A stretch of 64,000 nt of DNA from Escherichia coli (GTDB lineage: Bacteria; Pseudomonadota; Gammaproteobacteria; Enterobacterales; Enterobacteriaceae): the NCBI RefSeq assembly GCF_003334305.1, contig NZ_QOWS01000002.1, one strand, 5' to 3'. Under the pieces are notes generated by a model that saw only the letters and a program-made list of their open reading frames with translations, did no database searches and was not told the origin of the DNA. The position numbers were made by a program, and so were the translations under genes. Positions 38,694 through 52,559 of this stretch are shown here, piece after piece. Each line of letters starts with the position of its first letter. Within the stretch, counting starts at the first letter, position 1.

Positions 38694-39446
38694 TCAGGCA
38701 ACATTACGCGTATGACCAGCAAGCTGGGCCAGCGCATCGTTATTTTCGATGGTGATGTATTTACCTTTGACTGCCAGCATACCGCTTTTCTGGAAGCGAC
38801 CTAGCAGACGGCTGATGGTTTCTACCGTCAGGCCCAGATAGTTACCGATATCGCCACGAGTCATCGTCAGGCGGAATTCACGAGGGGAGAAGCCGCGTTG
38901 GGCAAAACGACGGGACAGGTTGTAGATGAATGCAGCCAGACGTTCCTCGGCATTTTTCTTCGACAACAGCAGGATCATGTCCTGATCGCCTTTGATTTCA
39001 CCGCTCATCAGACGCATCATCTGCTGACGCAGATTCGGCATTTTACCGGACAAATCGTCCAGCGTTTCGAACGGGATTTCACATACCATCGAGGTTTCCA
39101 GCGCCTGAGCGAAGCTCGGGTGATGGCCGCTGCCGATGGCGTCAAATCCCACCAGGTCGCCTGCTAAATGGAAACCAGTGATTTGCTCGTCGCCTTGCTC
39201 AGTGATGGTATAACTTTTAATCGTACCGGAGCGGATGGCATAAAGCGATTTAAGTTCATCACCAGCCTTAAACAGCGTCTGGCCTTTCTGAATAGGCTTC
39301 TTCCGCTCAATGATATTATCAAGCTGATCAAGCTCATGTTCGTTGAGTGTGAACGGGATGCAAAGCTGGCTGATGCTGCAATCCTGGCAATGGATAGCAC
39401 AACCGCCAGACTGAATGCGCCGTATAATTCGCTTTTCCGGGATCAT
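38694..39446 (-). CDS. fnr: anaerobic global regulator FNR (CRP/FNR family, Fe-S cluster)
   Basis: Track ORF 38694..39503 trimmed to the ATG at 39444-39446 ([31 protein letters not shown]...) giving 250 aa; N-terminal Cys cluster and C-terminal HTH. Confidence 0.96.
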
Positions 39447-39465
39447 AGGTCTGCTCAAGCCGTAA

Positions 39466-39479
39466 TTGATATTTGTCAA
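39466..39479. promoter_or_regulatory. FNR box in the fnr promoter (autoregulation)
   Basis: TTGATATTTGTCAA, a near-consensus TTGAT-N4-ATCAA site 20 bp upstream of the fnr start codon. Confidence 0.6.
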
Positions 39480-45570: not shown

Positions 45571-45671
45571 ACTGCATAAAAAAATAGAGTCTGTCGACAT
45601 CCGCCAGACTCTACAGTACACACAGCAGTGCATCCGCGTCTTAAGTCCGGCATTGTCTCCTCTGCGCCGGT
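45571..45671 (-). ncRNA. mcaS: Hfq-binding small RNA McaS (IsrA)
   Basis: Reverse strand reads ACCGGCGCAGAGGAGACAAUGCCGGACUUAAGACGCGGAUGCACUGCUGUGUGUACUGUAGAGUCUGGCGGAUGUCGACAGACUCUAUUUUUUUAUGCAGUU, matching the McaS sequence as I remember it, ending in a hairpin plus U7 terminator. Ends are approximate (a few nt). Confidence 0.8.
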
Positions 45672-47948: not shown

Positions 47949-48953
<1,005 letters not shown>

Positions 48954-48999
48954 CAAAAGCAATTTTTCCGGCTGTCTGTATACAAAAACGCCGCAAAGT

Positions 49000-49013
49000 T
49001 TGAGCGAAGTCAA
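49000..49013. promoter_or_regulatory. FNR box of the fnrS promoter
   Basis: TTGAGCGAAGTCAA centred about 42 bp upstream of the FnrS 5' end, the class II activation spacing. Confidence 0.7.
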
Positions 49014-49048
49014 TAAACTCTCTACCCATTCAGGGCAATATCTCCATT

Positions 49049-49170
49049 GCAGGTGAATGCAACGTCAAGCGATGGGCGTTGCGCTCCATATTGTCTTACT
49101 TCCTTTTTTGAATTACTGCATAGCATAATTGATTCGTACGACGCCGACTTTGATGAGTCGGCTTTTTTTT
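49049..49170 (+). ncRNA. fnrS: FNR-activated small RNA FnrS
   Basis: GCAGGUGAAUGCAACGUCAAGCGAUGGGCGUUGCGCUCC...GACGCCGACUUUGAUGAGUCGGCUUUUUUUU matches FnrS as I remember it, ending in a hairpin plus U8 terminator; track ORF 49047..49265 over it is judged non-coding. Confidence 0.85.
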
Positions 49171-49227
49171 GCCTGTTATTTATCAGCGTCTACCCTTTAA
49201 GAGTCCACCCAATGACCGGAGGGAAAT

Positions 49228-49401
49228 ATGACGACACTTATTTATTTGCAAATTCCTGTCCCTGAACCGATTCCTGGCGATCCTGTTCCAGTGCCCGATC
49301 CGATCCCTCGCCCGCAACCCATGCCTGACCCACCACCCGATGAAGAACCGATTAAATTGTCGCATCGTGAGCGTAGATCTGCGAGGATACGCGCCTGCTA
49401 A
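49228..49401 (+). CDS. unlisted 57-codon proline-rich small ORF immediately upstream of dbpA
   Basis: GGAGGG Shine-Dalgarno at 49218-49223, ATG 49228, stop TAA 49399-49401; encodes MTTLIYLQIPVPEPIPGDPVPVPDPIPRPQPMPDPPPDEEPIKLSHRERRSARIRAC. Below the 60-aa cutoff of the ORF track. Coding status not proven. Confidence 0.45.
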   Translation: MTTLIYLQIPVPEPIPGDPVPVPDPIPRPQPMPDPPPDEEPIKLSHRERRSARIRAC

Positions 49402-49430
49402 CTTTGCGTCGATGACCACGAGAATAGATT

Positions 49431-50804
49431 GTGACCGCTTTTTCTACCCTGAATGTTTTGCCTCCCGCCCAACTCACGAACCTTAATGAGTTGGGTTATT
49501 TAACCATGACGCCGGTGCAGGCCGCCGCGCTTCCGGCGATCCTTGCCGGAAAAGATGTTCGCGTGCAGGCGAAAACCGGCAGCGGCAAAACGGCGGCTTT
49601 TGGCCTCGGCTTGTTACAGCAAATTGATGCGTCGCTATTTCAAACCCAGGCTTTAGTGCTGTGTCCTACGCGTGAACTGGCGGATCAGGTGGCAGGTGAA
49701 TTGCGTCGGCTGGCGCGTTTTCTGCCAAATACCAAAATTTTGACGTTGTGCGGTGGTCAACCGTTCGGTATGCAGCGTGATTCGTTGCAACATGCGCCGC
49801 ATATTATCGTGGCAACGCCGGGTCGTTTGCTGGATCACTTGCAAAAAGGCACGGTATCACTGGATGCGCTGAATACTTTGGTGATGGATGAGGCCGACCG
49901 CATGCTGGATATGGGATTTAGCGATGCCATTGATGATGTCATCCGTTTTGCGCCTGCATCTCGACAGACGCTTCTGTTTTCGGCAACCTGGCCGGAAGCC
50001 ATCGCCGCAATCAGCGGACGAGTGCAACGCGATCCTTTGGCGATTGAAATTGACTCAACAGATGCTTTGCCACCCATTGAACAACAATTTTATGAGACAT
50101 CCAGCAAAGGCAAAATTCCTCTGTTGCAACGGTTATTAAGCTTGCATCAGCCATCCTCTTGCGTGGTGTTTTGCAATACCAAAAAAGATTGCCAGGCTGT
50201 CTGCGACGCGCTGAATGAAGTAGGGCAAAGTGCATTGTCGTTACACGGCGATCTGGAGCAACGCGATCGCGATCAGACTCTGGTACGTTTTGCTAACGGT
50301 AGCGCCCGTGTACTGGTTGCTACTGATGTTGCTGCGCGTGGTCTGGATATTAAATCGCTTGAGCTGGTGGTGAACTTTGAGCTGGCGTGGGACCCTGAAG
50401 TTCATGTACATCGCATCGGTCGTACAGCTCGTGCAGGAAATAGCGGTCTGGCGATCAGTTTCTGTGCTCCGGAAGAAGCACAGCGGGCCAATATCATTTC
50501 TGACATGTTGCAGATAAAACTTAACTGGCAAACGCCGCCAGCTAATAGTTCCATTTTGCCGCTGGAAGCAGAAATGGCAACGTTGTGTATCGATGGCGGG
50601 AAAAAAGCCAAAATGCGCCCGGGTGATGTATTAGGTGCGCTGACAGGAGACATCGGGCTTGATGGCGTAGATATTGGCAAAATCGCCGTGCATCCGGCGC
50701 ATGTCTATGTCGCGGTCCGTCAGGCTGTTGCTCATAAAGCATGGAAACAGTTACAGGGCGGGAAGATTAAAGGAAAAACGTGCCGGGTGCGGTTATTAAA
50801 ATAA
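49431..50804 (+). CDS. dbpA: ATP-dependent RNA helicase DbpA (DEAD-box, 23S rRNA-specific)
   Basis: 457-aa ORF with GTG start; motifs AKTGSGKT, DEAD and SAT present, plus C-terminal RNA-binding domain. Confidence 0.95.
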   Translation: MTAFSTLNVLPPAQLTNLNELGYLTMTPVQAAALPAILAGKDVRVQAKTGSGKTAAFGLGLLQQIDASLFQTQALVLCPTRELADQVAGELRRLARFLPNTKILTLCGGQPFGMQRDSLQHAPHIIVATPGRLLDHLQKGTVSLDALNTLVMDEADRMLDMGFSDAIDDVIRFAPASRQTLLFSATWPEAIAAISGRVQRDPLAIEIDSTDALPPIEQQFYETSSKGKIPLLQRLLSLHQPSSCVVFCNTKKDCQAVCDALNEVGQSALSLHGDLEQRDRDQTLVRFANGSARVLVATDVAARGLDIKSLELVVNFELAWDPEVHVHRIGRTARAGNSGLAISFCAPEEAQRANIISDMLQIKLNWQTPPANSSILPLEAEMATLCIDGGKKAKMRPGDVLGALTGDIGLDGVDIGKIAVHPAHVYVAVRQAVAHKAWKQLQGGKIKGKTCRVRLLK

Positions 50805-50926: not shown

Positions 50927-50932
50927 TCCTGG

Positions 50933-51868
50933 TTATTTCACTTCAACCACATTCAGCCGTAACTCATCCAACTGATTTTCATCTTCTTCTGGCTGCCAGC
51001 CCGCCGGTTGTAGTGGGATCTCTTCGCGATCAAACGCCAGATCACCCCCGTTAACCACTTCAGAACCGTGGGTAATGCCTTTGAAATCGAACAGGTTGGT
51101 ATCGCACAGATGCGACGGCACCACATTCTGCATCGCGCTGAACATCGTCTCGATACGCCCTGGATAACGTTTATCCCAGTCACGCAACATGTCAGCAATC
51201 ACCTGACGTTGCAGGTTAGGCTGTGAACCGCACAGGTTGCACGGAATAATCGGGAACGCTTTTGCATCGGCAAATCGCTGAATATCTTTCTCGCGGCAGT
51301 AGGCCAGCGGACGAATAACGATATGTTTGCCATCATCGCTCATCAGTTTCGGAGGCATACCTTTCATCTTGCCGCCGTAGAACATATTTAAGAACAACGT
51401 TTGCAGGATATCGTCACGATGGTGACCCAACGCGATCTTCGTCGCCCCCAGTTCCGTTGCGGTACGATAAAGGATACCGCGACGAAGGCGAGAACACAGT
51501 GAGCAAGTGGTTTTGCCCTCTGGAATCTTCTCTTTCACGATACCGTAAGTATTCTCTTCAACAATCTTGTACTCAACGCCCAGCTTTTCAAGATACTCGG
51601 GCAGAACGTGTTCCGGGAAGCCCGGTTGCTTTTGATCGAGGTTAACAGCCACCAGCGAAAAATTGATTGGCGCGCTTTGCTGCAAATTGCGCAGAATCTC
51701 CAGCATGGTATAGCTGTCTTTACCCCCGGAGAGGCAAACCATGATGCGATCGCCTTCTTCAATCATATTGAAGTCAGCAATGGCTTCGCCCACGTTACGA
51801 CGCAGACGTTTTTGTAATTTGTTCAGGTTGTATTGTTCTTTCTTACTAATTTCTTGATTTTGCGACAT
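50933..51868 (-). CDS. ttcA: tRNA 2-thiocytidine(32) synthetase (PP-loop ATPase)
   Basis: 311-aa ORF with PP-loop SGGKDS and Cys motifs; N-terminus here is [18 protein letters not shown]. Confidence 0.92.
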
Positions 51869-52010
51869 TTAAAAGCGACTCAATTCGTTATATGGCATCA
51901 GAAGAGTATGCGTCATGCCGGAACGCCCAGCATAAGAAATCTGATATAAAAACTGTGGCGTGTATGGTACGGATTAGAGGGGAAAATGTCAGCACATTTG
52001 CGAAATGAAT

Positions 52011-52037
52011 CAAAAAGCCCGCAGCAATGTGCGGGCG
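52011..52037 (-). terminator. rho-independent terminator after uspF
   Basis: On the reverse strand GCCCGC-loop-GCGGGC followed by UUUUU, immediately 3' of the uspF stop. Confidence 0.6.
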
Positions 52038-52043
52038 TTAGTG

Positions 52044-52559
<516 letters not shown>

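Follow-up and report, generated by a model that had tools for sequence, protein, structure and literature searches.

Does the short interval between zntB and dbpA in this Escherichia coli strain hold an intact copy of the small RNA gene fnrS behind an FNR-dependent promoter, and what is the proline-rich open reading frame (ORF) that begins just beyond its terminator? An initial annotation, made from the letters of the sequence, had proposed the small RNA, its activator site and an ORF absent from gene lists. These proposals were followed up here in the window, by which is meant the whole 64,000-nt stretch of DNA analysed (contig NZ_QOWS01000002.1 of assembly GCF_003334305.1), and in the corresponding loci of other genomes. 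With a probability of about 0.97, the region is the canonical E. coli fnrS locus with an FNR-activated class II promoter. The fnrS gene, the FNR promoter and ynaL are all already known and none of them is new. The value of the result is therefore chiefly that of a quality check, in which a sequence-only reading recognised a known small RNA and its activator site correctly, and the only loose end of research value concerns what YnaL does and the conserved placing of its gene against the FnrS terminator. The features of the locus are collected in Table 1.

Table 1. Features of the fnrS locus and of the fnr gene, with positions in the 64,000-nt window
Feature	Position	Strand	Description
fnr	38694-39446	-	CDS, 250 aa, intact; 9.6 kb upstream of fnrS
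TTGACAAATATCAA box	39479-39466	-	Perfect; just upstream of the fnr ATG
zntB	47970-48953	+	Upstream neighbour; stop 96 nt before +1
FNR binding site TTGAGCGAAGTCAA	49000-49013		-49 to -36, centre -42.5 (with +1 carried over from K-12 annotation); identical in K-12
-10 hexamer CAATAT	49036-49041	+	-13 to -8; no recognisable -35 element, FNR site there instead
Variant at -4/-3	49045-49046		Between -10 hexamer and +1; K-12 TC, window CA; in 145 of 5256 E. coli genomes
fnrS	49049-49170	+	122-nt Hfq-dependent small RNA, +1 at 49049; basis Rfam RF01796 and alignment with K-12 b4699
Stem-loop 1	49049-49094	+	nt 7-18 paired with 27-38, closed by 1-4 with 43-46; Rfam consensus structure
Linker CUUACUUCCUUUUUU	49095-49109	+	nt 47-61, single-stranded, C/U-rich; main seed for target ribosome-binding sites
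Stem-loop 2	49110-49135	+	nt 62-87; U78 (49126) in its 4-nt internal loop
Variant at nt 78	49126		FnrS nt 78, unpaired internal loop; K-12 C, window U; in 10 of 5393 E. coli genomes
Rho-independent terminator	49143-49170	+	8-bp GC-rich hairpin (49143-49162), then U8 (49163-49170); terminator scan
Candidate ynaL promoter	49169-49196	+	-35-like TTGCCT (49169-49174), 16-nt spacer, -10-like TACCCT (49191-49196), within motif CTACCCTTTAAG
Variant at 49218	49218		ynaL Shine-Dalgarno region; K-12 A, window G (AGAGGG to GGAGGG)
ynaL (b4743)	49228-49401	+	CDS of the 57-aa proline-rich small protein YnaL; Shine-Dalgarno GGAGGG at 49218-49223
dbpA	49431-50804	+	Downstream neighbour

The fnrS gene and its promoter

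The whole window was scanned with the covariance models of Rfam 15, and one of the three matches above threshold was FnrS. Model RF01796 matched positions 49049-49166 along its entire length (1-119 of 119) at 135.1 bits, where the gathering score is 60, and with E = 3.8e-24, far beyond what chance would give. The K-12 gene (b4699, 1409129-1409250) could likewise be placed on 49049-49170 by a gap-free alignment with a single substitution in the RNA. The claim that the FnrS small RNA is present is borne out by both results, and the Rfam scan, which had been named beforehand as the check on it, was passed with a score far above threshold. Three independent sources agree on 49049 as +1. The K-12 gene is annotated from this base, the Rfam model begins on it, and the numbering of the published FnrS mutants (G4/G5, C47-U49 and U57-U59; PMC8595263) fits the window sequence exactly when counted from it. 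The surrounding 501 nt (48950-49450) are found with at least 95% identity in 5391 of 5426 complete E. coli genomes, and with 100% identity in strain H15 and eight other E. coli genomes. The PGAP-annotated RefSeq records matched here carry no feature under fnrS, and this gives the coordinates, which are trustworthy for annotation, some practical use.

Upstream of +1, the sequence TTGAGCGAAGTCAA matches the FNR consensus TTGAT-N4-ATCAA at 8 of 10 positions, and both of its cores, TTGA and TCAA, are perfect. Its centre at -42.5 relies on the +1 carried over from the K-12 annotation and upholds the initial claim of a box about 42 bp upstream at class II spacing; the same value is given for K-12 in Table 1 of Myers et al. 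(2013; PMC3688515), where fnrS is listed with an FNR ChIP-seq peak and one site at -42.5. The same study found a higher sigma-70 occupancy at fnrS without oxygen, and its table places other activating FNR sites at -41.5 (narK, nrfA and caiF) or at -42.5 (ydhY). A -10 hexamer that stands without a -35 hexamer has, to judge from the letters, the look of a class II activator-dependent promoter. A generic sigma-70 promoter scan of 48800-49500 found no promoter, which is expected where the promoter depends on an activator, so that the scan is uninformative at fnrS. A terminator-like hairpin on the minus strand of the promoter spacer (49038-49022) was also considered and dismissed, the region being unconserved.

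The conservation of this arrangement was examined in loci retrieved from one genome per species with a pattern that lies wholly inside stem-loop 1 and is therefore blind to the box. The search yielded 120 loci in the Enterobacterales, ranging from Escherichia to Yersinia, Photorhabdus, Pantoea, Dickeya, Edwardsiella and Arsenophonus; 119 were usable, with the window included and K-12 and H15 left out. TTGA-N6-TCAA with at most one mismatch was present in all 119, with its centre at -42.5 in 116 loci and at -41.5 in the other three, which are of the Yersinia/Photorhabdus type. In columns anchored at +1, the TG of the left half-site and the TCAA of the right one are at least 95% conserved across the 119 loci. 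The -10 region follows the pattern CAnnnT at -13 to -8, in which A-12 and T-8 are conserved to at least 95% and C-13 to at least 80%, and the preceding G-14 is also conserved to at least 95%. The stretch from -32 to -18 is unconserved, and the RNA itself is almost invariant from +1 to +45. Among the E. coli genomes that match here, 4102 of 5256 share an identical 60-mer from upstream of the box through the -10 hexamer. A phylogenetic footprint as clean as this, with a box held at -42.5 in 116 of 119 loci beside an unconserved spacer, bears out the published promoter model without recourse to experiment. Anaerobic FNR-dependent expression would thus be the expected behaviour in this strain, given the intact box, -10 hexamer, seeds and stems, the ChIP site in K-12 and the intact fnr gene within the window.

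Part of the FnrS-containing RNA may instead derive from zntB, by read-in that ends at the FnrS terminator, in which case FnrS would double as the 3' end of zntB and only some of it would be a primary transcript dependent on FNR. A terminator scan of the plus strand from the zntB stop (48953) to the FnrS terminator revealed no terminator-like hairpin. In 116 of the 120 loci the two genes are linked, and in most of these zntB lies directly upstream in the same orientation and usually ends about 70-140 nt before the FnrS start. On these two grounds zntB transcripts may end at the FnrS terminator. Read-in as a source of FnrS is nevertheless considered unlikely: the complete promoter stands at a fixed spacing in all species, ChIP of FNR and the reported dependence on FNR both point to a primary transcript (PMC3688515, PMC11572966), and in loci of the Rahnella and Rouxiella types zntB is convergent with fnrS and not upstream of it. 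The reading preferred here is that of FnrS as a primary transcript of its own FNR-activated promoter.

The ynaL gene beyond the FnrS terminator

The ORF was said to begin 58 nt past the FnrS terminator, and position 49228 is indeed the 58th base after the last terminator T. The further statement that it is unlisted was mistaken, as the ORF is ynaL (b4743 in K-12), entered in RefSeq as 'proline-rich small protein YnaL', Pfam has a family for it and the protein was detected in 2018. The match to that family, PF23677 ('Protein YnaL-like'), has E = 2.2e-40 and aligns residues 1-57 with model positions 1-57. The 57-aa sequence encoded in the window is identical to the published K-12 protein, while the upstream Shine-Dalgarno region differs (AGAGGG in K-12, GGAGGG here). 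VanOrsdel et al. (2018; PMC6001520) report detection of the epitope-tagged protein in K-12 and propose a ynaL-dbpA operon. The NCBIfam models gave a single match, to the TonB proline-rich region and far below threshold (20.8 bits against a cut-off of 315 bits), which was rejected as homology and regarded as compositional.

Among 60 distinct sequences, one per species, entropy at the third codon position was 1.63 bits compared with 0.58 and 0.57 bits at the first and second, a contrast which indicates that the ynaL frame is under coding selection. A YnaL-like ORF on the same strand was found by tblastn in 70 of the 120 loci and by an ORF-based search in 67 of 120, some loci being too short downstream. 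It usually starts 50-67 nt past the FnrS terminator, carries the core DPVPxDPxPIPDPIPRPQPxPDPPP, and occurs in about half of the species, more commonly than dbpA. The latter follows at up to about 400 nt in roughly one species in four and gives a match of any kind in 34 of 120 loci. Pantoea, Erwinia, Mixta, Cedecea, Pluralibacter and others have ynaL beside fnrS with no adjacent dbpA. Downstream of fnrS in Yersinia, Serratia, Photorhabdus, Edwardsiella, Dickeya and others no YnaL-like ORF was found, some of the 120 loci being too short to judge. The main text of Myers et al. (2013; PMC3688515) makes no mention of uspF, dbpA or ompN.

How ynaL is transcribed bears on whether its protein would follow FNR. 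It most likely has a weak sigma-70 promoter of its own that abuts the FnrS terminator, and would then not be expressed simply by read-through. The -35-like TTGCCT overlaps the last two T of the FnrS terminator, and the spacer motif CTAC(C/G)CTTAAAG (49190-49201) is conserved in a 31-species alignment. The arrangement TTGnnn-N16-18-TAnnnT was found in 47 of the 59 loci with a YnaL ORF, where 4.9 would be expected from shuffled sequences, a comparison uncorrected for relatedness. Loci of the Pantoea and Erwinia types, in which the spacer is 10 nt longer, have their own correctly spaced TTGCCA or TTGGCT.

The alternative is that ynaL lacks a separate promoter and depends on read-through of the FnrS terminator, by which YnaL, and perhaps dbpA, would become dependent on FNR and anaerobiosis. 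The ORF starts 58 nt past the terminator on the same strand, the adjacency of FnrS and ynaL is kept in about half of the species, and the generic scan of 48800-49500 offers no sigma-70 promoter, all of which would suit read-through. It must be set against a strong terminator (8 bp with 5 GC, plus U8), the promoter-like arrangement just described together with its counterparts in Pantoea and Erwinia, and the detection of YnaL by tagging, reported by VanOrsdel et al. (PMC6001520) in passages that name no growth conditions, and it is held to be rather improbable. A separate weak promoter for ynaL is accordingly the reading retained here.

The generic promoter scan is too strict for a candidate as weak as that of ynaL.

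A direct contact between the two transcripts was also considered. By RNAduplex, the C/U-rich linker of FnrS is predicted to pair with the Shine-Dalgarno sequence and start codon of ynaL at -13.1 kcal/mol, which places it in the top 2% when 50 ORF starts of the window are ranked. This pairing is kept as a weak lead only, because a strong GGAGGG with A-rich sequence after it pairs almost automatically with a C/U-rich seed, which accounts for most of the score, and because the background consists of those 50 ORF starts. It is doubtful that FnrS and ynaL form a conserved two-gene module and are not accidental neighbours; were they such a module, YnaL synthesis could respond to oxygen by way of promoter occlusion, read-through of the terminator or direct pairing with the small RNA.

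RNA structure, strain variants and the box motif

The structure of the RNA was assessed by asking how well an Rfam-type structure fits 111 distinct aligned orthologues. Covariation was used for this purpose because the single-sequence evidence is weak: the fold of the window sequence gives three hairpins, but its thermodynamics are unremarkable (z = -1.65), with 11 of 200 shuffles folding as well. Across the 111 orthologues 92.8% of the cells are paired, compared with 30-44% when the partners are slid by 1-3 columns, and both-sided changes occur in 13 pairs, of which five belong to the eight of the terminator, three to the 12-pair helix of stem-loop 1 and five to stem-loop 2. None of 500 shuffles reached the observed pairing and covariation values. 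The helices of stem-loop 2 are 94-96% paired, with compensatory changes present, while A9/C36 is an invariant mismatch within stem 1. Covariation thus supports the predicted stems of FnrS and a three-hairpin architecture that includes the terminator, whose U tail would presumably form the Hfq-binding 3' end by analogy with other Hfq-dependent small RNAs.

Two parts of the molecule have been linked to target recognition. The 5' end (G4, G5) is one published target-pairing region, and the loss-of-function mutants fnrS-I and fnrS-II map to the linker (PMC8595263). The linker CUUACUUCCUUUUUU is unpaired both in the Rfam structure and in the single-sequence fold. It is conserved in loci of the Escherichia, Citrobacter and Enterobacter types; in Yersinia, Photorhabdus, Rosenbergiella and Tatumella it is either variable or shorter. 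At the seed positions G4/G5, C47-U49 and U57-U59 the window is identical to K-12.

The gap-free comparison of the window with K-12 over 501 nt showed four differences, all of which lie outside the box, the -10 hexamer, the seeds and the paired positions, and the description of the small RNA and its site as intact therefore stands. The variants are apparently harmless and are judged to be neutral from their positions. A functionally altered allele, in which CA at -4/-3 and U78 would change promoter output or the activity of the small RNA, could be suspected from the scarcity of both alleles among E. coli genomes (Table 1), yet it is very unlikely: the -4/-3 stretch lies between the -10 hexamer and +1 and varies freely among species, nucleotide 78 is unpaired, a U stands there in the Rfam consensus as well as in several other genera, and the seed regions and all stems are unchanged. 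The third site of difference, in the Shine-Dalgarno region of ynaL, gives the window the form GGAGGG that is found in most other species.

By its motif alone the box is statistically unremarkable, with two TTGA-N6-TCAA sites in the window against 1.6 expected in shuffled sequence, and 54 sites against 35.6 expected at the two-mismatch level to the 10-nt FNR consensus. Motif counts were therefore dropped as evidence, and what speaks for the box is where it lies, how well it is conserved and the published ChIP data. The reading of the box as a chance match with no regulatory role, with which such counts would agree, is effectively refuted by a position that is invariant across 119 species beside an unconserved spacer and by the FNR ChIP-seq peak on the identical K-12 sequence (Myers et al., 2013; PMC3688515).

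Proposed regulation and relation to known systems

Judged by its sequence, the locus has every feature looked for in FnrS (RF01796), in a class II FNR promoter and in YnaL (PF23677). Its transcription, its occupancy by FNR and the repression of its targets in this strain are what we infer from K-12. Under anaerobiosis the [4Fe-4S] FNR dimer would bind the inverted repeat TTGAG-N4-GTCAA at -42.5, as is known from K-12. At this class II position FNR would replace the -35 element, and would recruit and activate sigma-70 RNA polymerase at CAATAT. Transcription would start at 49049 and stop at the intrinsic terminator, giving a 122-nt RNA. Together with Hfq, FnrS would then pair through its 5' end and its linker (nt 47-61) with mRNAs that the cell can do without under anaerobiosis, at their ribosome-binding regions; sodB, gpmA, cydDC and iscR, the targets given in the literature, would have their translation repressed and their levels lowered. 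In this way FnrS would provide FNR with a negative, indirect regulon. The regulator itself is encoded in the same window, and the perfect TTGACAAATATCAA box upstream of its start codon is presumably the fnr autoregulatory site.

The primary FnrS papers are those of Durand & Storz (2010) and Boysen et al. (2010), which reportedly contain the mutational evidence for FNR control. Eleven operons are listed as an FnrS-dependent indirect FNR regulon by Myers et al. (2013; PMC3688515), and FNR control, Hfq dependence and repression of iscR with Hfq-assisted pairing have been documented for FnrS (PMC11572966).

The closest known counterpart is the K-12 locus, which shares the gene order zntB-fnrS-ynaL-dbpA and the RNA length of 122 nt and agrees base for base in the promoter box, the -10 hexamer, the seed regions, the stems and the terminator. 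Compared with K-12 fnrS, the window carries C78U in the internal loop of the RNA and two substitutions at -4/-3, both alleles being rare in E. coli. With the class II FNR promoters of narK, nrfA, caiF and ydhY, that of fnrS shares a TTGA/TCAA inverted repeat overlapping the -35 position and a -10 hexamer at normal spacing with no -35 element. It departs from them in the centre of its box, which is at -42.5 whereas the modal value of such promoters is -41.5, and its half-sites are TTGAG and GTCAA in place of the TTGAT and ATCAA of the FNR consensus. RyhB with Fur and OxyS with OxyR follow the same logic, in which a regulator that is chiefly an activator, or chiefly a repressor, gains control of the opposite sign by means of an Hfq-dependent small RNA, and they share targets with FnrS, for example sodB and iscR. 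RyhB and OxyS are, however, unrelated to FnrS in sequence, respond to other signals (iron and peroxide) and are expressed from promoters of other architectures.

YnaL-like reading frames and the interval preceding them

Proline-rich ORFs resembling YnaL adjoin the sRNA gene fnrS in approximately 60 to 70 of 120 Enterobacterales species (loci L003-L122, one genome per species; region +120 to +400 from the FnrS start), and dbpA was found in only 34 of the same 120. Two kinds of C-terminus were distinguished among these ORFs: those of Escherichia, Citrobacter and Enterobacter end in ...DEEPIKLSHRxRRSARIRAC, those of Pantoea, Erwinia, Cedecea and others in ...DPDPxPIIDPPPH.

Between the FnrS terminator and ynaL (window 49169-49202 region) lies a conserved motif, CTACCCTTTAAG, which from its sequence reads as a putative -10 hexamer, TACCCT; it is accompanied by a -35-like TTGCCT that overlaps the U-tract of the terminator. 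Arrangements of the TTGCCT/TACCCT type were observed in 47 of the 59 YnaL-carrying species loci, compared with 4.9 expected from shuffled sequence with relatedness ignored.

Upstream of fnrS, no terminator-like hairpin was found from the zntB stop codon to the sRNA gene (window 48954-49048), and zntB transcripts may extend as far as the FnrS terminator, ending at that point. In loci of the Rahnella and Rouxiella type, zntB is convergent, with its end about 150 nt past the FnrS start.

FNR-type sites and neighbouring sRNAs

The gene of the regulator itself, fnr, is intact and located 9.6 kb from fnrS on its upstream side. Besides the fnrS box, TTGACAAATATCAA is the sole perfect TTGA-N6-TCAA in the window; it lies 20-33 nt 5' of the fnr ATG, a position at which the autoregulatory FNR site of fnr would be expected. 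A further element, TTGATCTAAATTAA, is a possible FNR or CRP-family site approximately 77-90 nt ahead of the uspF start codon; uspF does not appear in the main text of the K-12 FNR ChIP-seq study of Myers 2013 (PMC3688515).

Coordinates of features in the window
Feature	Position	Strand	Remarks
fnr	38694-39479 (including upstream box)	-	250 aa
TTGACAAATATCAA	39479-39466	-	perfect TTGA-N6-TCAA
McaS/IsrA	45576-45671	-	known sRNA; 117.6 bits, above Rfam threshold
fnrS	49049-49170	+	sRNA gene
ynaL	49228-49401	+	proline-rich small protein
uspF	52044-52478		TTGATCTAAATTAA on its upstream side
TTGATCTAAATTAA	52555-52568	-	candidate; one mismatch to TTGAT-N4-ATCAA
MicC	53977-54097	+	known sRNA; 125 bits, above Rfam threshold

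Rare alleles, annotation and comparison with K-12

Two rare alleles occur in the window: CA at -4/-3 of the fnrS promoter (49045-49046; 145 of 5256 genomes) and U at FnrS nucleotide 78 (49126; 10 of 5393). Six of about 5400 E. coli matches to the fnrS locus are on plasmid-labelled records, and 33 complete E. coli genomes are without any match. Among the locus matches listed, the PGAP-annotated E. coli RefSeq records carry no fnrS-named feature, whereas the K-12 MG1655 record annotates the gene. The ynaL Shine-Dalgarno sequence (49218) is GGAGGG in this strain and AGAGGG in K-12. In H15, an E. coli strain 100% identical to the window over 48950-49450, ttcA and uspF are adjacent, which leaves only 4.9 kb between FnrS and MicC. 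In K-12 the Rac prophage comes after ttcA, whereas it is missing from the ttcA-uspF junction (approximately 50930-52480) in the window.
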